Counted from the stretch's first letter, positions 18,993 to 41,120 are shown. The stretch: DNA of 64,000 nucleotides from Candidatus Nomurabacteria bacterium (GCA_023898465.1 CP060223.1:896001-960000), one strand, 5' to 3'. The notes: generated by a model from the sequence alone, not told the origin. Numbers and translations: made by a program.

Positions 18993-19068
18993 GCGCGCCT
19001 AGCTCAATGGTTAGAGCAGTCGGCTTATATCCGACCGGTTCCAGGTTCGAGCCCTGGGGCGCGCACCA
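18993..19068 (+). tRNA. tRNA-Ile (anticodon UAU), CCA encoded
   Basis: Hand-folded cloverleaf. Acceptor gcgcgcc/ggcgcgc. Anticodon arm gtcgg-cuUAUau-ccgac. T arm ccagg-ttcgagc-cctgg. Confidence 0.85.
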
Positions 19069-32545: not shown

Positions 32546-33937
32546 ATGCGACGTTACGTCATTCTCATAGGTATCGTACTCATACCGGTTCTGGCCGTAT
32601 TTATTATCGTGTCCGGGGTTATTAATAAACCACAGCCAAATGTACAGGACGTACCATTAACCTTTTGGACAGTACAAGATGACACAAGCGCCTTTACTGA
32701 CGTGATCGCAGCATATCAGCAAGCCCACCCCTACATTACCATCGAGGTCGTACAAAAGCGTGCTCAAGATTATGGTGAGGCACTTATTCAAGCATGGGCA
32801 CGTGGGGACGGGCCTGATATTTTTTCTCTCCCTAATGCAGAGGTTGGAGAATATGCTGACTTTATTGCCCCATTACCTGAGGCAACACAGGTCTATCAAT
32901 ATCAGAACAAACGCGTGCTTCTCAGTAGGCAGCTTGTGATTACACCGGTCACTTCAAGCTCTATCACCCCGGCCCGCCTCAGTAATGACTATGTAGATGT
33001 TATTGCCAGCGATGTTATCCGAGATGGACAAATATATGCACTCCCATTAAGCGTAGACACCTTAGCAGTCTACGTTAATCGCAACCTTCTAAACACTGCT
33101 AATATTGTTTCACCGGCAACAACCTGGCAAGAGCTTATTTCCCAAGTACCTGATCTCACTATTTTTGATGCGCAAAATAATATTATTCAATCTGGGATCG
33201 CACTTGGAACGGCTGAAAATGTTTCCTACTCAGCTGAAATACTCTCACTGCTCATGATGCAAAACGGTACACAAATGACTGACCCAACTGGAACACGTGT
33301 GCAATTTGATCAGGGAACAAAAGAATATAACGCGGGTGAACGAGCTGTTGATTTCTACACCGACTTCTCTGACGAAACAAAAGCAGTCTACAGCTGGTCA
33401 GGGGATAGCTCACACTCAATTGATAGTTTTATCGAAGGTAAGACTGCCTACTTAATTGGCACCTTAGCTGACCAGGCAACAATTCAGGAGCAAAACCCGG
33501 CACTCCGCTATGACATCGTGCCAATGTTCCACATCAATACCGATGGAACCGACACCAGCGGCAGCACGGGAACGCGTACAAAAATTAACTACGCAAAATA
33601 CTGGGTGCAGACAGTGGCAAAAAATTCCGCTCATAGCAATGAGGCTTGGAATTTTGTGCAATACATGAGTCAGTCAGGCGTCGTCGAGGCATATCTCAAC
33701 GCCAGCGGACGTATTTCTCCTCTCCGAAAAATATTAGCACAACAAGTGAATGTGCCGGCCTTACAAGTCTTTGCCAATCAAGCGCTCACTGCGCAAAATT
33801 GGTATCATGGAAACAGCTGGACACAAACTGAAGGCTATCTCAAGCAACTCATCACCGTTGTTGCTGAAAAAACAAAGTTGCCGTTGGAGGCTTTAAGCCA
33901 AGCTGCTAAACAAGTGCAGCTCACCTTTACTGAATAA
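32546..33937 (+). CDS. extracellular solute-binding protein (sugar-type ABC SBP fold), N-terminal TM anchor, no cognate permease or ATPase nearby
   Basis: LTFWTVQDDTSAFTDVIAAYQQAHPYITIEVVQK...GDGPDIFSL pattern of family-1 SBPs. Confidence 0.7.
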   Translation: MRRYVILIGIVLIPVLAVFIIVSGVINKPQPNVQDVPLTFWTVQDDTSAFTDVIAAYQQAHPYITIEVVQKRAQDYGEALIQAWARGDGPDIFSLPNAEVGEYADFIAPLPEATQVYQYQNKRVLLSRQLVITPVTSSSITPARLSNDYVDVIASDVIRDGQIYALPLSVDTLAVYVNRNLLNTANIVSPATTWQELISQVPDLTIFDAQNNIIQSGIALGTAENVSYSAEILSLLMMQNGTQMTDPTGTRVQFDQGTKEYNAGERAVDFYTDFSDETKAVYSWSGDSSHSIDSFIEGKTAYLIGTLADQATIQEQNPALRYDIVPMFHINTDGTDTSGSTGTRTKINYAKYWVQTVAKNSAHSNEAWNFVQYMSQSGVVEAYLNASGRISPLRKILAQQVNVPALQVFANQALTAQNWYHGNSWTQTEGYLKQLITVVAEKTKLPLEALSQAAKQVQLTFTE

Positions 33938-33940
33938 CGC

Positions 33941-34924
33941 ATGTTACGTTTACCCTCAACTCGATTCTGGATCATCTCGGGTTTAAGCATGCTTATTGTA
34001 CTTGGCGCAGTAATACCTGCCCGAGCGGAGATCTTACCAAACTGCGAAAAAACACTTTACAAAGTTGAGCTCAATGGAGATCTCGATTGCCCAGATGGAA
34101 CAAACAATTGTATTGATCCAAATGATTACATACAAACTGTACACGGTGATATCGAACAGGTAATGGTCAACCGGAGCTGTGGTTTCAATGACTTCATTCA
34201 GCTCTTTGTGAATCTCGCAAACTGGGGCTTGGCTATTATGGGTGCCCTGGCTGTTTTCTTCTACATGTACGCGGGCTTCCAATTCTTAACTGCCGGCGGT
34301 CGGAGCGAGAATGTCGAGCAGGGTAAAAAAATTCTCTGGGGCACCACTATGGGAGTGATTATCATGCTGACTGCGTGGGCCGTTATTGGTTTCTATATTG
34401 TTGCTACAACTGGCAGTAACCAAGGCTTTGTTTTTCCTAATGATCCTAACTTCCTAGCCCCTTGGTTTGGTCAGACCGAAACTTGTCGACAGACCTATAT
34501 AAAAAATTACGACCAATCTCAGTGTGGACAAAACAATCTTCATATAAACTGTTCAGACCCGATTGATGGAAGCGATGGACCTGTTACTCGTTTGCAAAGC
34601 ATACTTACTCAGCGAGCTTGTAACCCTGGAGGAATAGACGGCTGTTTTGGTTCAAACACTGAAAGTGGGCTCCGACAATTCCAGAGAGTGAATTGGCGCA
34701 GTGGAATTATTGAAGACGGGGTAGTGAATGCCGATGATTGGAGCACCCTACTCAACACTTCTACTGCGTATGATTGTTCAGTCCCGCTAGGTTGCTGCAT
34801 CAATCCTGATGAACCGAGTCTTTGTTATGATCAAATTCCAGAGGCCTACTGTAACCAGAATGGTTGGACCTTCCTACCAGATAGCTGTGCGAGTTACGAC
34901 TTTGACTGTGAAGGACCAAGTTAA
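33941..34924 (+). CDS. T4SS-pilin-like (TrbC/VirB2-type hairpin) membrane protein fused to a Cys-rich domain and a peptidoglycan-binding-like domain
   Basis: Signal peptide (...IPARA/E). Hairpin motif YAGFQFLTAGGRSENVEQGKKILWGTTMGVIIMLTAW. C-terminal GCFGSNTESGLRQFQRVNWRSGIIEDGVVNADDWSTL resembles the PG_binding_1 pattern. Contains 20 Cys residues. Confidence 0.6.
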   Translation: MLRLPSTRFWIISGLSMLIVLGAVIPARAEILPNCEKTLYKVELNGDLDCPDGTNNCIDPNDYIQTVHGDIEQVMVNRSCGFNDFIQLFVNLANWGLAIMGALAVFFYMYAGFQFLTAGGRSENVEQGKKILWGTTMGVIIMLTAWAVIGFYIVATTGSNQGFVFPNDPNFLAPWFGQTETCRQTYIKNYDQSQCGQNNLHINCSDPIDGSDGPVTRLQSILTQRACNPGGIDGCFGSNTESGLRQFQRVNWRSGIIEDGVVNADDWSTLLNTSTAYDCSVPLGCCINPDEPSLCYDQIPEAYCNQNGWTFLPDSCASYDFDCEGPS

Positions 34925-34937
34925 TTTTCTATTGCAT

Positions 34938-35300
34938 ATGAATACACTACGAAAAAAACGCTTACCACTTATTCTCATGATCGCCGGACTCGTCCTCATG
35001 CCGCTGAGCGCCTTTGCGCAAAGCGGCTCGGCTGTAGCCATACCTAACCCGATTTCGTGTGGTAACTTAATTTGTCTCTTTGTAAACCTCATGCGCCTTA
35101 TTCTGGCCGGCTTAGGTGTCTTTGGCATGGTGATGTTTATTTGGGGAGGCTTTCTCATGCTTACTTCTGCGGGTAATGCTGATCGAATTCAAAAAGGAAA
35201 AGAAACCTTAGTGTGGTCAATTCTTGGTATTTTAGTAATTCTCGGCAGTTGGATACTCCTCAAATCAGTGATTGATGCAATTAACGGGGTTACTAACTAG
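34938..35300 (+). CDS. T4SS-pilin-like small membrane protein (120 aa)
   Basis: Signal peptide ...SAFAQS. Hairpin IWGGFLMLTSAGNADRIQKGKETLVWSILGILVILGSW. Confidence 0.6.
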   Translation: MNTLRKKRLPLILMIAGLVLMPLSAFAQSGSAVAIPNPISCGNLICLFVNLMRLILAGLGVFGMVMFIWGGFLMLTSAGNADRIQKGKETLVWSILGILVILGSWILLKSVIDAINGVTN

Positions 35301-35385
35301 GTTTGACGAAGTAGGAAGAGAGAGGTACGCTATATTCGACATAAGGTGAAGGAACACTTCACAATTGAAAGGGGGTGAGAAACAC

Positions 35386-35751
35386 ATGAAACAACGTACA
35401 CGACTGCTCGGCACACTAGCAGCATTTGCTATACTAGCACTTCCGTTGCTTGTTTCCGCCCAATCTGCTTTCACCGTAGAAAACATCGGTGGATCAGTTG
35501 GTCTCGGTACTGCTGACCTCAAAGATACCGTCATCAACATCATTCAATGGGTGCTTGGTATCCTCGCACTCGTTGCTGTCGTTATGATCATCATTGGTGG
35601 TTTCCAGTGGATGACTGCTGGTGGAAACGACGAAAAGGTGGAAAAGGCCAAGAAGATTATCTCAGCCGCGGTAATTGGTCTTATTATCATCTTGTTGGCT
35701 TGGGCTATTGTCATCTTCGTCGCAAATACAACGGCGAATGTCACTACCTAA
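35386..35751 (+). CDS. T4SS-pilin-like small membrane protein, paralog P1 (121 aa)
   Basis: SD GGGGGTGA. Signal peptide ...VSAQS. Hairpin IIGGFQWMTAGGNDEKVEKAKKIISAAVIGLIIILLAW. Tail ANTTANVTT. Confidence 0.7.
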   Translation: MKQRTRLLGTLAAFAILALPLLVSAQSAFTVENIGGSVGLGTADLKDTVINIIQWVLGILALVAVVMIIIGGFQWMTAGGNDEKVEKAKKIISAAVIGLIIILLAWAIVIFVANTTANVTT

Positions 35752-35777
35752 TCCAATCACGTATTTGGACTTTTAGA

Positions 35778-35808
35778 ACATACCCAGCTCACTGCTGGGT
35801 ATGTTTTT
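35778..35808 (+). terminator. rho-independent terminator of P1
   Basis: 11-bp stem acatacccagc/gctgggtatgt, 5-nt loop, then tttt. Confidence 0.8.
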
Positions 35809-35873
35809 ATTCAAAAAAGCCTTACTATGCTATAGTAGTATATATCTTTGAGAAGAAGAGGGGGTGAATATAC

Positions 35874-36230
35874 ATGAAGAAAGCTTTAATCGCAGTCGGT
35901 ACTTTGGCGCTCGTTGCTATGCCAATGCTTGCATCAGCCCAATCTGCTTTCACCGTTGAAAACGTTGGAGGATCCGTCGGTCTCGGTACCGCTGATTTGA
36001 AGGACACCGTCATCAACATCATTCAATGGGTGCTTGGTATTGTCGCCTTAATCGCTGTCGTTATGATCATCATTGGCGGTTTCCAGTGGATGACTGCTGG
36101 TGGAAACGACGAAAAGGTGGAAAAGGCCAAGAAGATTATATCTTCAGCCGTAGTCGGTTTGATTATTGTGTTACTCGCCTGGGCAATTGTTGTATTCGTT
36201 GCAAACACAACCTCAAACGTTACCGCCTAG
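35874..36230 (+). CDS. T4SS-pilin-like small membrane protein, paralog P2 (118 aa)
   Basis: SD GAGGGGGTGA. Near-identical to P1 and P3. Tail ANTTSNVTA. Confidence 0.7.
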   Translation: MKKALIAVGTLALVAMPMLASAQSAFTVENVGGSVGLGTADLKDTVINIIQWVLGIVALIAVVMIIIGGFQWMTAGGNDEKVEKAKKIISSAVVGLIIVLLAWAIVVFVANTTSNVTA

Positions 36231-36249
36231 CGTACACTTCGCAAATTCT

Positions 36250-36286
36250 GCAAAAGCCCTACCTTATACGAGGGCTTTTGCTTTTT
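36250..36286 (+). terminator. rho-independent terminator of P2
   Basis: 11-bp stem gcaaaagccct/agggcttttgc, then ttttt. Confidence 0.8.
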
Positions 36287-36356
36287 CTGCGCAACTTTTA
36301 TTTTTCATGGTATACTGAATGCATTACATCTTTAGGTAAAGGAGGTGAATGTCAGA

Positions 36357-36725
36357 ATGACCATAAAACGATTTCTTCCCTTAGCGCTACTCGGACTTAC
36401 CTTGGTATTACTGCCTTCTACTGTAGCAGCTCAATCAACCGCCTTTACGATCGAAAATATTGGTGGATCAATCGGTCTCGGTACCGCTGATTTGAAGGAC
36501 ACCGTCATCAACATCATTCAATGGGTGCTTGGTATCCTTTCATTAGTAGCCGTTGTTATGATTATTTTTGGTGGCTTTACCTGGATGACTGCCGGAGGTG
36601 CTGAAGATAAAGTTGATCAAGCCAAGCGTATTATCACCGCTGCAGTAATTGGTCTTATCATCATCTTGTTGGCTTGGGCTATTGTCATCTTCGTCGCAAA
36701 TACAACGGCGAACGTTACCACTTAG
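36357..36725 (+). CDS. T4SS-pilin-like small membrane protein, paralog P3 (122 aa)
   Basis: SD AAAGGAGGTGA. The ATG at 36357 is preferred over the GTG at 36345. Tail ANTTANVTT. Confidence 0.7.
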   Translation: MTIKRFLPLALLGLTLVLLPSTVAAQSTAFTIENIGGSIGLGTADLKDTVINIIQWVLGILSLVAVVMIIFGGFTWMTAGGAEDKVDQAKRIITAAVIGLIIILLAWAIVIFVANTTANVTT

Positions 36726-36743
36726 GCTACACTAGAATCAAAA

Positions 36744-36780
36744 CACAGACCTCTCCATATTTGGGGAGGTTTTGTGCTTT
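36744..36780 (+). terminator. rho-independent terminator of P3
   Basis: Stem core cctctcc/ggggagg with flanking extension, followed by a T-rich run. Confidence 0.65.
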
Positions 36781-36809
36781 TGGCTGACTCCGCTACACTA
36801 TGAACGCAT

Positions 36810-38816
36810 ATGTCTAAAATACCGGATAGAACACAGGCCTGGCTGCTAGGAATGATGATCTGTATGATTGTTATCTCTTTTGCAGGTCAATACGTAAAAT
36901 GGCAAAGTCTGGCCTATAACGGACTCGATTTGGGTATTTACACTCAAGTAGTATCAGAAACCAGCCAAGGGAATTTCTTTGGCTTCACCATTCACCCGCA
37001 CTCCTACTTGGGTGACCATGTTGAATTTTTACTATTACTCCTTGTGCCTCTTTTTTGGATTGTGGCTCATCCACTCTGGCTCTTGGCCGCACAAAGCCTT
37101 GTGTTGGCTTTAGGCGCTATCCCTATATTTCGCCTTGCACGCAAAAAACTAAATGGTAACTGGGCTCTAGGTTTAAGTGCAGCCTACCTTTTTTCGCCTT
37201 TCCTCTGGAATGCAAACATGTATGAATTTCACATGTTAGCTTTTGCAATTCCAATCTTACTTGCGGCACTACAAACCTACATCACTAAATCACTCAAGTG
37301 GCATTGGCTTTGGCTGGCTTTGGCCTTGCTCGTACGAGAAGATGTTGCCTTTGTAGTATTTGGCATTGGTATTGTGGCTGCAATTGAGCGGAGGAATTGG
37401 AAATGGTGGCTACCCACCTTTTTGGTTAGCGCTGCCTGGTTTGGATGTAGTATTTATCTCGCTGGATCCTTGGGCACTTTGGGTGAATATAAATTTCTCA
37501 AATACTATGGATGGCTCGGCCCCGATCTTGTTTCTATTATCGGAAACTTTTTTGGACATCCCTGGCTCGTACTCCAACGCGTGCTTCATCCGCAAGCGCT
37601 TGCTTTCTTGCTAGGCCTAGGACTCCCTTTTGCCTATTTGCCAATCTTCCGACTTCGTTGGCTTATCCCGATCTTACCTATCTACTTACAACTTTCTCTC
37701 TCAGGAGTTGCGCGAGAAATCTCACTAGAAATGCACTACGTGAGTTTGTTCTTACCATTTCTCTGGATTGGCTCTATTGAGGCAATACACAAACTTCGTA
37801 GTGAAATGGGAAAAACTCGACGAGGAAAATTTATCCAAGAATACGCCGGGGTTATTGTTAGCGTACTCGCTGTTGTGGCAATATATTGCTTCATCGTAAT
37901 CGGTCCGATTCGCGGCCTGGCACAAACCTGGTATCGACCAGATACGCAACGTGAACATGAACAGTTAGCCAGAGATGTGCTCAACATTGTACCCGATACC
38001 ACACCTCTCGCAACTGGATATCGCTTTATTTCATGGACAGCCACTCGACCCGTGTTGTACTCCTTGCACTATCTTTTTATTGGCCGGCAACAATATAGCG
38101 ATGAAAGTTTCCCACTTGACCCTAGCATCCAAACGCTGCTCATAGACCAAAGTGATTTTGTTACCTATCAATCAGTCTATCCGGAAGATAATACCGACTA
38201 CAAAGGTGGTGCCCAGCGCTTCCGCGATCTCATTGAAGAAAGAAAGCTTCAGCTCAATCTCATGGTTGACGATCTCTTGCTCTATACAAACACCCATACT
38301 ACATCCCAAAAAGAATTAGTGCGTATTGGAAATGAAGATCAACTAAGACAAAGCCTCTTTCAGACAAGCAACGGACTCATCTTGCACTCCTGGGAGAATA
38401 ATGAAGGAATCAACAAACTTCAAAGTGAATATGTGCATATTAACACGCACAACTACCTCACCCTCCCGCTCTCGTTTATCTGGTCTCAGCATGAAATAAC
38501 AACGCGTCATAATACCGTACTACTCACACTGACTCGGGGAGACGGCGCAGTGTATCAAAAAGAATATCCCATCGCCCCGCTCTGGCCGCAATCAGAGTGG
38601 CCATTAGATACTCCAATGATTACGCAACACCAATTTCTCATCCCGACCGACTTCGCCCAAAGTGATACCCAGATAGCAATGGATGTGATGTCGATTCGGG
38701 GTCGATTAAGTTTGGATACCCAACGCTCTATCGTGCCTCGCTACGATGAACACGACTCCTTGGGCCACCTTAATCTCGGAAATCTTATTCTACCGGACGC
38801 AAGCGATACAGAGTAA
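36810..38816 (+). CDS. DUF2079-family polytopic membrane protein (putative glycosyltransferase)
   Basis: N-terminal YNGLDLGIYTQVVSETSQGNFF...HPHSYLGDHVEF pattern, about 12 TM segments, and a large C-terminal extracytoplasmic domain. Confidence 0.65.
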   Translation: MSKIPDRTQAWLLGMMICMIVISFAGQYVKWQSLAYNGLDLGIYTQVVSETSQGNFFGFTIHPHSYLGDHVEFLLLLLVPLFWIVAHPLWLLAAQSLVLALGAIPIFRLARKKLNGNWALGLSAAYLFSPFLWNANMYEFHMLAFAIPILLAALQTYITKSLKWHWLWLALALLVREDVAFVVFGIGIVAAIERRNWKWWLPTFLVSAAWFGCSIYLAGSLGTLGEYKFLKYYGWLGPDLVSIIGNFFGHPWLVLQRVLHPQALAFLLGLGLPFAYLPIFRLRWLIPILPIYLQLSLSGVAREISLEMHYVSLFLPFLWIGSIEAIHKLRSEMGKTRRGKFIQEYAGVIVSVLAVVAIYCFIVIGPIRGLAQTWYRPDTQREHEQLARDVLNIVPDTTPLATGYRFISWTATRPVLYSLHYLFIGRQQYSDESFPLDPSIQTLLIDQSDFVTYQSVYPEDNTDYKGGAQRFRDLIEERKLQLNLMVDDLLLYTNTHTTSQKELVRIGNEDQLRQSLFQTSNGLILHSWENNEGINKLQSEYVHINTHNYLTLPLSFIWSQHEITTRHNTVLLTLTRGDGAVYQKEYPIAPLWPQSEWPLDTPMITQHQFLIPTDFAQSDTQIAMDVMSIRGRLSLDTQRSIVPRYDEHDSLGHLNLGNLILPDASDTE

Positions 38817-40422
38817 GCTCGCCTGATTGGTATACTGTCTGAAGTGCAGAAATCGCGCTTGGATCAGCCACACTATTCCGCGTATCAAATTCACCCCATA
38901 GTAAATAATCCACACTCTGCTCTCGCAACCATCTTTCAAGGGCAGTATTTCCACTTTGGCGCGCTACAATAAAACCATCTGATTTGTCATTGTAATGCAA
39001 GGTTTCAATCGGGTGTCCAAATACCACTGCCCGACCCGCCCAAGCTGGTATATAGAGATTGCCAATTTTCCCAGCTGCAAAAACTGCACGAGTATCGGTG
39101 TGTGTTTTCATCCAGTCACTCATATCTTGATAAGATTGATCGACGTAGAGGTGGTATGGCGGCTGACGAAAAGTATCATTCGTCCAAAGATGTACATCCA
39201 TGCCCACTAAAGCAATCGGCGAAAGACTAAACACTACTACGGCCAGCATTGGAGTGGCTACATAGCGAGACCAGCTTACTAATGGAAATCGCTTGAATAC
39301 TATACGAAGACCAATAAAAGCAAATAAAGCTAGGGGGAGCATCCAACCTTCAGTTAGGCGGCGACTAAAACTAATCGGCAAAAAGAAAATACATGCTTGC
39401 CCAAACAACCACGCAAGCGGCATTGCGTAGGTGCTTCGATCACGACCTAGTTGAAACAAAGCAAGAAGGGCCAGCGGAATAAGAGCGCCATAGCTAATAA
39501 GTGTGGTAAAAAAGAATGGCATAGTATTCACATTCTGAGCCGCTCGGCTATTCGCAATTGGGTCAAAAAGTATTATCCCAACTTGGTAGAAAATCATTGG
39601 CAGCGCTAGTCCTCCTACAAGAAGCGCCCCCCACAAAGCCCGTGCCGTTTTATCCCGCTGCCATAAAAAAGTGAAGAGTATAAAAAGCACAAAAACCCCT
39701 ATCACTGTTGGTAAGTGAAAGGGGTGAAAGCTCATAAGTAAAAAAAGCGACAGGCCGCTTTGCAAAAAATACTGTATTTGCTTTTGCTGCACCCCGAGGT
39801 AATACCAATGAAAAATGAGAATAAGTAATGAGGTGGCTAAAATAAAATGCGGGCTCTGATACATCGTTAAAAATGTATACGCTTCACTTACCCAGAGATC
39901 CATCGGCCAAATCGCCCACTCAATAAATCCAAAAATGTATTTAATAAAAGGATATGCAATTGCTCCAAATCCTGCAGCAAAAAGAAAAAGCAAAATAGCA
40001 AATTTACGCTCACGCCATGCCGGAAGAAAATTGCGTAAGAAAATTTCGCTCGACCATAGGAGTAAGGGGATGAGGAGGATTCGGGCTAAATGAAAACTTA
40101 CTAATGCGGAAAGGTGCAGCCACTTTGCCATATATCCAACAACAATCCAGATTGGACTGAAAATAAAAGCGTCATGCGGCTCAGCAGTAAACAAATCCCT
40201 AAGCATCACCTGTCCCTGTTTTACCTGTTCTATGTAGGAAAAATAGACCGGCAAATCACCTGGAGCCAGTGTATGTCCTCCGGTAAAAATCATCCCATCT
40301 GCCTGCATCATCCACGCGTAGAGGTAAGGGAACGTTGTGAGAATAACTAAAGCGAGGGCTATCCACCAAAACCAACGACGTGGCATTTTTTCAGCATCTG
40401 GGTGAAGAGAAAAAAACTGCAT
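38785..40422 (-). CDS. polytopic membrane protein, GT-C-fold glycosyltransferase-like
   Basis: More than 10 TM segments plus a C-terminal soluble domain. Last gene of the coupled operon. Its 3' end overlaps the convergent DUF2079 gene by 32 nt. Confidence 0.45.
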   Translation of the reverse strand: MQFFSLHPDAEKMPRRWFWWIALALVILTTFPYLYAWMMQADGMIFTGGHTLAPGDLPVYFSYIEQVKQGQVMLRDLFTAEPHDAFIFSPIWIVVGYMAKWLHLSALVSFHLARILLIPLLLWSSEIFLRNFLPAWRERKFAILLFLFAAGFGAIAYPFIKYIFGFIEWAIWPMDLWVSEAYTFLTMYQSPHFILATSLLILIFHWYYLGVQQKQIQYFLQSGLSLFLLMSFHPFHLPTVIGVFVLFILFTFLWQRDKTARALWGALLVGGLALPMIFYQVGIILFDPIANSRAAQNVNTMPFFFTTLISYGALIPLALLALFQLGRDRSTYAMPLAWLFGQACIFFLPISFSRRLTEGWMLPLALFAFIGLRIVFKRFPLVSWSRYVATPMLAVVVFSLSPIALVGMDVHLWTNDTFRQPPYHLYVDQSYQDMSDWMKTHTDTRAVFAAGKIGNLYIPAWAGRAVVFGHPIETLHYNDKSDGFIVARQSGNTALERWLREQSVDYLLWGEFDTRNSVADPSAISALQTVYQSGELTLYRLRPVE

Positions 40423-41120
40423 TACTTCTGAGAGCGAAACAATAATGCAAGAATCATTTGAGCGTATTCACGAGCAATCGTGAATGAAATTTTACTCTTG
40501 CCATATTGGCGATCCTGAAAAACATAGCCGATTTCTGTGGTCTGAAGTGGACGCGCTCGAACCAAAATCTCTACTAAAAGTTTATACCCGCGCGGACGTA
40601 AAGTATGTGCAATGCGTGTATACACATCTCGTCGTACGGCAAAATATCCGCTCATAGGATCACGCTCTCGAATACCGAGCATCACCTGAGCAATCCTAGT
40701 AGCAAACCAACTCATGGCTTGGCGTCGCAGAGGCCAACCTAACATACCGCCGCCACTAACAAAGCGTGAACCGATAGCCACGTCATTACCTAACTGCACC
40801 GCCCTAATCATCTGCGGAATAATTGCCGTATCATGCGAAAGATCGGCATCCATGCAAATAAAAATTTCTGATCTGGCCTCTTCCATACCAGCCATCAGTG
40901 CAGAAGCAAGGCCTAACTTACCTGTTCGCTCAATAACCCTGACTGGATAGTGAGCAGCCAGCGAACGAACAAGCTGAGCGGTCCCATCTGGCGAAGCATC
41001 GTCAACCACAATTATCTCGACAACCAGCTGCAAGCGGGCAATCTGTCGAAGGCACGCCTCAATGTTCTCCTTTTCATTATAGGTTGGCAGGATAATGCTA
41101 GCTTTTGGCAAGGCGCTCAT
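40422..41120 (-). CDS. polyprenol-monophosphate mannose synthase (GT2, Dpm1/Ppm1-like)
   Basis: SIILPTYNEKENI...VVDDASPDGTAQLV...CMDADLSHD. Confidence 0.85.
   Translation of the reverse strand: MSALPKASIILPTYNEKENIEACLRQIARLQLVVEIIVVDDASPDGTAQLVRSLAAHYPVRVIERTGKLGLASALMAGMEEARSEIFICMDADLSHDTAIIPQMIRAVQLGNDVAIGSRFVSGGGMLGWPLRRQAMSWFATRIAQVMLGIRERDPMSGYFAVRRDVYTRIAHTLRPRGYKLLVEILVRARPLQTTEIGYVFQDRQYGKSKISFTIAREYAQMILALLFRSQK

Follow-up and report, generated by a model that had tools for sequence, protein, structure and literature searches.

The question raised by the present locus is why the closest partner of each of three tandem pilin genes changes along the length of the gene. The genes, named P1, P2 and P3, lie on the plus strand within positions 35386-36725 of a stretch of 64,000 nucleotides (nt) of Candidatus Nomurabacteria bacterium (GCA_023898465.1 CP060223.1:896001-960000), which is called the window throughout. 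The source assembly is an NCBI metagenome-assembled genome deposited under that organism name, and the pilin locus carries the locus tags H6760_04660, H6760_04665 and H6760_04670. It is very probable that the three genes are old tandem paralogues which underwent recent short-tract gene conversion, and that they represent a case of concerted evolution. The genes and the three shared blocks, named A, B and C, are as follows.

35386-35751, plus strand: P1, a T4SS_pilin protein of 121 amino acids (PF18895, E=4.9e-15) with a block B of the GGFQW type and a P3-like block C
35874-36230, plus strand: P2, a T4SS_pilin protein of 118 amino acids (PF18895, E=9.4e-16) with block A in common with P3, block B in common with P1 and a block C of its own
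36357-36725, plus strand: P3, a T4SS_pilin protein of 122 amino acids (PF18895, E=1.8e-12) of the GGFTW / AEDKVDQAKR type, orthologue of the gene S3 of a related species
35977-36040, plus strand: block A in P2, a tract equal to P3 36472-36535 at 64/64 nt (longest-run p=2e-4)
36472-36535, plus strand: block A in P3, equal to P2 35977-36040 at 64/64 nt
35575-35660, plus strand: block B in P1, a tract matching P2 36054-36139 at 85/86 nt (p=4e-4)
36054-36139, plus strand: block B in P2, matching P1 35575-35660 at 85/86 nt
35671-35738, plus strand: block C in P1, a tract matching P3 36645-36712 at 67/68 nt (p=2e-4)
36645-36712, plus strand: block C in P3, matching P1 35671-35738 at 67/68 nt

The start of P3 is most likely the ATG at 36357, which was preferred over the GTG at 36345 given in the list of open reading frames (ORFs).

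Identity blocks and the three genes

In block A, the P1 counterpart (35498-35561) was found to contain seven substitutions, all of them synonymous, and GLGTADLKDTVINIIQWVLGI is encoded by all three genes. The block B contained a lone difference between P1 and P2, at 35598/36077, and P3 was found to differ from them at 26 of the 86 positions, amino-acid changes included. In block C, the odd copy was P2, which differed at 20 of 68 positions. The blocks could not be extended, as a mismatch is present at both ends of each, and the codon and flank alignments placed all three as internal patches with diverged sequence on either side. When the odd copy was recorded along the codon alignment, runs of 7, 21 and 16 like-patterned variable sites were obtained. 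The initial annotation had described the partners as switching from P2 and P3 in block A to P1 and P2 in block B and to P1 and P3 in block C, and every coordinate and count of that description was reproduced on recomputed alignments. Its explanation, segmental recombination between the tandem copies, was upheld by the robust run tests, the internal position of the patches, the synonymous contrast between blocks and background, and the finding that the blocks are more alike than orthologues are.

The 133 variable sites of the P1-P3 codon alignment were shuffled 100,000 times, by which each of the three runs was found to be significant (p<=4e-5) and all three jointly were found in 0 of the 100,000 shuffles. 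A codon alignment of the family was made from 93 'major pilin' genes of 68 genome and metagenome loci, and the longest-concordant-run test of the Sawyer/GENECONV type on these 93 sequences gave p=2e-4 for each P1-P3 pair, which is the floor of 5,000 permutations. Under a stricter null, in which the per-site difference rates were estimated from between-genome pairs and which covers conserved codon positions, the longest-run test gave p=2e-4 to 4e-4 for the three window pairs. Their longest exact runs were 62, 53 and 64 nt, against 32 nt among 150 control pairs taken from different genomes, of which 4% reached p<0.01. All three pairs were significant at p<=4e-4 under the two nulls.

By the Nei-Gojobori method, the proportion of synonymous differences (pS) was found to be 0.8-0.9 outside the shared blocks, where it is saturated, versus 0-0.2 inside them, and the proportion of nonsynonymous differences (pN) was low (0.02-0.2) throughout the mature protein. 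The identity to P1 is 80% for P2 and 74% for P3, and the mature proteins contain 9, 12 and 21 differences per 94 residues between the copies, which are largely conservative. By these measures the mature proteins of P1-P3 are under strong purifying selection, and no diversifying selection was found among the three, pN being much below pS.

All three proteins were above the gathering threshold of the PF18895 T4SS_pilin profile (55.8 bits for P1, 58.1 for P2 and 47.6 for P3; cutoff 26.6), a family of VirB2-like pilins found mainly in bacteria of the candidate phyla radiation (CPR) according to Pfam. The PF04956 TrbC/VirB2 profile gave 24.0 bits for P1, below its cutoff of 27.9, and P2 and P3 were not reported by that profile search. 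The AlphaFold2 model of P1 (mean predicted local distance difference test score, pLDDT, 80.6) contained helices at 3-25, 42-77 and 82-119, which correspond to the helix of the signal peptide and to two long hydrophobic helices folded back on each other as a hairpin, the shape expected of a VirB2-like pilin. A Foldseek search of the model against the PDB gave no match at E<=0.001, only generic helical hairpins, and no match for the pilin was found by phmmer against the PDB sequences; these searches of solved structures are uninformative because the fold is a simple helical hairpin. At the C-terminus, the residues N-V-T (P1 residues 118-120, window 35737-35745, and the same sites in P2 and P3) were found to be nearly invariant in 29 homologues, among which T115 and T116 were likewise conserved. 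The N-V-T is a putative N-x-T sequon or processing site, and the pilins adjoin predicted membrane protein and glycosyltransferase genes.

Each of the three genes was found to contain a Shine-Dalgarno-like ribosome-binding site, a start codon and a signal peptide, followed by the presence of a hairpin with a U-run downstream:

35775-35812, plus strand: hairpin and U-run after P1, a predicted intrinsic terminator (RNA fold -27 kcal/mol, z=-7.0)
36250-36287, plus strand: hairpin and U-run after P2, a predicted intrinsic terminator (RNA fold -22 kcal/mol, z=-5.0)
36747-36782, plus strand: hairpin and U-run after P3, a predicted intrinsic terminator (RNA fold z=-4.1)

The flanks outside the coding regions of P1-P3 do not align, and the homology ends at the borders of the coding sequences. 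Since a separate ribosome-binding site and terminator accompany every gene and the flanks cannot be aligned, P1, P2 and P3 would constitute three separate transcription units and not an expression locus with silent cassettes. The boxes TATATT, TATAGT and TATACT, which are -10-like, were spotted upstream of P1-P3 by eye only, and the promoter scan found a number of sites no higher than in shuffled sequence.

Age and place of the exchanges

A related species was recovered through the protein P0021, which is its gene S3, on the Logan contigs L111 and L112, where the local order is the same as in the window, with the tail of S2 followed by S3 and the DUF2079 gene. The orthologues were found to be 81-82% identical at the nucleotide level and the unconverted paralogues about 70%, whereas the converted blocks were 98.5-100% identical. 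The identity of P3 to S3 was 70/86 in block B and 55/68 in block C, and that of P2 to the S2 tail was 56/68 in block C. In the core of block A, P3 was identical to P2 at 62/62 positions and to its own orthologue S3 at just 50/62. Because the blocks are 98.5-100% identical and the orthologues about 81%, the blocks postdate the species split; the paralogues are older than this split and the three exchanges much younger. Whether block A of P1 reflects an 'older, decayed' conversion was also considered, and the idea was dropped, as P1 is about as close to S3 (54/62) as to P2 and P3 (56/62).

The nearest neighbour in each block among the 93 family sequences was found to be, by a wide margin, the paralogue a few hundred bases away. 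In slightly wider blocks, the paralogue matched at 88-94%, versus at most 83% for about 90 sequences from other genomes, and the exchanges were probably both recent and within the source genome. The genes S2 and S3 contain an identical patch of their own, consisting of GGTCTGATTATCGTGCTGCTCGC and the last codons (L112 1-145 versus 269-643), which is placed differently from the blocks of the window and is best regarded as a conversion that took place independently in that lineage. With S3 as reference, parsimony gives a hint of a transfer from P2 to P3 in block A and from P3 to P1 in block C.

Explanations of the mosaic

In the favoured course of events, an ultra-small bacterium of the Patescibacteria would carry P1, P2 and P3 in its chromosome as tandem copies, duplicated long ago, of a VirB2-like (PF18895) pilin gene. 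The coding regions of the three are held similar by purifying selection, so that enough matching sequence would be left for homologous recombination between misaligned copies. At least three separate recent non-reciprocal exchanges, between P2 and P3, P1 and P2, and P1 and P3, would have left minimum tracts of 64, 86 and 68 nt, respectively. The outcome would be concerted evolution, in which the copies are kept alike, and not programmed diversification. The identical patches would in turn provide the substrates for unequal crossover, which would account for a copy number that varies from 1 to 3 in related genomes and, perhaps, for the two hybrids described below. We infer RecA-type recombination as the enzymology and no adaptive role; RecA is described as near-universal in CPR bacteria (bioRxiv 10.1101/2024.06.21.600076). 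The blocks are internal patches diverged on both sides, a pattern that speaks for the non-reciprocal conversion of short tracts rather than for single crossovers. The origin of the mosaic in one unequal crossover or in a chimeric duplication was rejected, as the blocks are internal and the sequence at the heads, at the extreme 3′ ends and in the flanks is saturated or unrelated. A diversity-generating retroelement was rejected as well, as the blocks are identical and not mutated.

Two hybrid genes were found on contigs of the ENA assemblies ERZ28655665 and ERZ27309337. The hybrid P0121 begins as P1, up to and including block B, ends with the tail of P2 and is present on contig L108 (565 nt), which ends 3 nt past the P2 stop codon. 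The hybrid P0004 begins as P2, up to and including block A, goes on with the remainder of P3 and is present on contigs L109 (megahit k141) and L110, which come from two samples and both run on into the DUF2079 gene. The junctions were found to lie exactly within the identical blocks (B for P0121 and A for P0004), and the pieces were otherwise identical to the window except for two single-nucleotide polymorphisms in the P2 part of L109. The reading of '5 mismatches' of L109 and L110 as a different strain, which would have spoken for true recombinants, was dropped, as these are P2-type sites before block A, followed by sequence 100% identical to the window. The contigs L108 and L110 are from the same sample and cannot share one genome, which favours mis-joins there. 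Unequal crossover between neighbouring copies may have produced the hybrids by true deletion, to which a chance somewhat below even is given; they may otherwise be hops of the assembler across the repeats of 62-64 nt in low-coverage data.

None of the eight other conceivable hybrids, reciprocals included, was found in a collection of 15 billion proteins, which is weak evidence as the exact look-up misses partial ORFs. The protein search with P2 as query gave no additional conspecific variants, and the scan of Joint Genome Institute (JGI) metagenomes gave 33 loci with none conspecific, the best being 83% identical at the amino-acid level. The genome scan for the pilin locus gave 72 loci, the best at 87%. 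Exact look-ups of the DUF2079 protein and of the divergent 119-amino-acid pilin of the locus found nothing, and the uncertain start of the latter may explain its failure. The conversion had been called ongoing, and this is shown in the evolutionary sense only, as the candidate population variants L108, L109 and L110 are possibly mis-joins. That the hybrids are real and the array of this epibiotic-type bacterium recombines in natural populations on ecological time scales is considered rather unlikely.

The blocks might have been made by the assembly or its polishing, through collapsed repeats or short reads mis-mapped between paralogues. P1-P3 are indeed repeats, short-read assemblies break or hybridise at their array, and the full-length P2 protein was found only in the source genome, an intact P2 being present in none of the short-read assemblies searched. 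However, the ENA short-read contig L001 (megahit k141) was found to be 100% identical to window 35331-35904 and to contain the whole of P1 with both unique flanks, and the ENA contig L002, of another sample and another assembly naming scheme, was found to be 100% identical to window 36293-36919 and to contain the whole of P3 with both unique flanks. Repeat collapse, which the initial annotation had named as a different source of the pattern, is largely excluded for P1 and P3 by these contigs. The P2 head with block A, and block B with the P2 tail, were each found in other contigs, the longest exact repeat (64 nt) is shorter than common read lengths, and a like signal was found in many unrelated assemblies, by which an artefact is made highly improbable. 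Selection on the DNA or RNA of a highly expressed gene, through codon bias, RNA structure or a regulatory site, might also keep stretches alike with no recombination; the protein-level conservation of the family is extreme and the nucleotides of block A are somewhat conserved between species, as in P1 against S3. Such selection would nevertheless hit all three copies, whereas the synonymous codons of the third copy differ and the odd copy changes by block; the site-specific-rate null still gave p<=4e-4, the orthologues are just about 81% identical in the same stretches, and little credence is left for this explanation. As little is given to an import of the blocks through ordinary allelic recombination with other strains or species. 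The exchange of DNA by Patescibacteria (PMC12455944) and the circulation of many related pilin genes in the same habitats would speak for it, but the nearby paralogue was by far the best match of each block, as given above for the wider blocks.

Under a programmed variation, frequent shuffling of the tandem pilin genes as cassettes would vary a surface filament, as in Neisseria pilE/pilS or in the antigenic variation of Anaplasma, with a role in host range or in predator or phage evasion. In its favour are the hybrids P0121 and P0004 with their junctions exactly in blocks B and A, the presence of only 'forward' hybrids on record, and the proposal of host adaptation for pilin arrays by the authors of a survey of Patescibacteria type IV secretion systems (T4SS; PMC12102498). 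However, the 64 kb contained no silent, truncated or promoterless donor copies, the pilin genes being P1-P3 and two divergent full genes with no fragments, and the motif of guanine quadruplexes (G4; G3+N1-7 x4) was absent on both strands of the window. None of the three genes lacks a ribosome-binding site, signal peptide or terminator, the few differences between the mature proteins are largely conservative with pN much below pS, the exchanges raise the likeness of the copies and not their difference, and the hybrids are built of window-identical pieces explicable as assembler hops. The comparison with cassette shuffling of surface proteins that the initial annotation had drawn is not supported, since there are no silent cassettes and no G4 in the window, the copies are all apparently expressible and under purifying selection, and the net effect is homogenisation. 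Programmed variation is therefore held to be very unlikely.

Some points weigh against gene conversion among the three paralogues as set out here. A donor copy elsewhere in the 1.08-Mb genome is possible, as the search covered the 64-kb window. The direction of each transfer is inference only, no P1 orthologue having been recovered in the related species. The 13 nt that join blocks A and B in P2 and are specific to it were seen in the source genome only, and the evidence consists of assembled contigs.

Locus context, related systems and meaning

The genes directly upstream of P1 were found to be the following.

33941-34924, plus strand: a protein of 327 amino acids with T4SS_pilin and PG_binding_1 domains, in the conserved locus and outside the exchanges
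34941-35300, plus strand: a divergent T4SS_pilin of 119 amino acids, about 30% identical to P1-P3, in the conserved locus and outside the exchanges

In the ORF list, the second of these is given as an ORF of 163 amino acids that begins at 34809, overlaps the end of the 327-amino-acid gene and ends at 35300. The start at ATG 34941 is favoured by homology and by the position of the predicted signal peptide, and the true start is uncertain.

The locus (window 32546-41120) was found to be kept, at 25-60% protein identity, in 40 or more genomes of Patescibacteria (loci L004-L045), many of which carry the label Kerfeldbacteria. The conserved order contained a solute-binding protein (SBP_bac_1), a large pilin-domain protein, a small divergent pilin and one to three major pilins, followed by the presence of DUF2079, a membrane protein of 545 amino acids on the minus strand and a GT2 glycosyltransferase. 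No T4SS component, ATPase included, was found among the 28 window ORFs scanned, and the neighbours of the pilins in the window are the solute-binding protein, DUF2079, the GT2 glycosyltransferase and housekeeping genes. The pilins may be part of a structure of the envelope, or of one linked to glycosylation, rather than of a classical T4SS operon. Elsewhere in the window, a tRNA-Ile with the anticodon TAT was found by ARAGORN at 18993-19068, in a loose group of 10 tRNA genes at 18.9-30.1 kb. A tRNA-Ile of this anticodon is an uncommon bacterial way to read AUA.

Among the within-array pairs of other genomes, 38% were found at p<0.01, versus 4% of the control pairs. The exact runs in other arrays were 236 nt in L004, 104 nt in L008 (across the signal peptide), 95 nt in L007 and 90 nt in L016, and their positions differ. 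As significant tracts are present in many other multi-copy arrays, conversion is recurrent in this pilin family and no peculiarity of the source genome. As to the order of the copies, a copy of the GGFQW type was found to be the last before DUF2079 in every other multi-copy array (20 compared), whereas the GGF(T/V)W, AEDKVDQAKR type takes this place in the window and in L111/L112. The GGFQW-type copies precede the last copy in the window, and in L112 the preceding gene is present as a tail only, which is P2-like.

The closest precedent was found in the tandem trwL genes, homologues of VirB2, of the Trw T4SS of Bartonella, for which concerted evolution is described (Nystedt et al. 2008, Mol Biol Evol 25:287, cited in PMC2883598). 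Both are chromosomal tandem arrays of VirB2 type in which the copy number varies between species and recombination blurs orthology, and all copies of both are probably expressed (PMC2883598). The Bartonella copies are reported to be strongly diversified, tied to host-specific adhesion and placed inside a complete trw T4SS operon, whereas the mature proteins of P1-P3 are nearly identical and no T4SS gene accompanies them among the ORFs scanned; the family (PF18895) and the host (Patescibacteria) differ as well.

Arrays of VirB2-like pilins are characteristic of Patescibacteria and are reported to be essential in the single species in which this was tested, and the 2025 survey of this group counted 441 VirB2 arrays of 2-11 genes, with a within-array amino-acid identity of 25% on average and 54% at most, and reports no recombination in them (PMC12102498). 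These arrays share the protein family (PF18895/PF04956 matches), the phylum and the tandem layout with P1-P3. In contrast, P2 and P3, by their identity to P1, fall outside the range of up to 54%, and P1-P3 contain conversion tracts.

The pilE/pilS system of Neisseria gonorrhoeae is similar in that pilin segments are copied non-reciprocally between paralogues, by which mosaic genes are made. Its protein is a type IV pilus pilin, which is another class, and its transfer runs one way, from silent promoterless pilS copies to one expression locus, which is not so at P1-P3. The Neisseria system depends on a G4-forming sequence and a small RNA (PMC3547852, PMC13463697), and it generates diversity, unlike P1-P3.

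The pattern is nearer to generic bacterial gene conversion in that the copies are homogenised. No description of gene conversion in CPR pilin arrays was found in the literature searched. In generic cases such as tufA/tufB or the rRNA operons, conversion is of RecA type, leaves short identical tracts and is homogenising. Compared with these, P1-P3 have three tandem partners, three pairings within one gene of 360 nt and saturated synonymous divergence elsewhere, and the three pairings on a saturated background make the mosaic unusually clean. The process, homogenising gene conversion, is a known one that had not been recorded for this family before, and no new mechanism is involved.

The finding indicates a second regime for the pilin arrays of Patescibacteria, with near-identical copies, recurrent short-tract conversion and a conserved cluster in which no T4SS genes were seen nearby. 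Orthology and copy-number calls for such pilins will be unreliable, and short-read assemblies will break or hybridise at such arrays. It also indicates that homologous recombination is active in these reduced genomes. If the hybrids are real, the copy number would change and so would the subunit composition of a surface filament, the conversion tracts acting as built-in crossover sites, and Patescibacteria would have in this array a simple switch, worked by recombination, for their interactions with hosts or phages.

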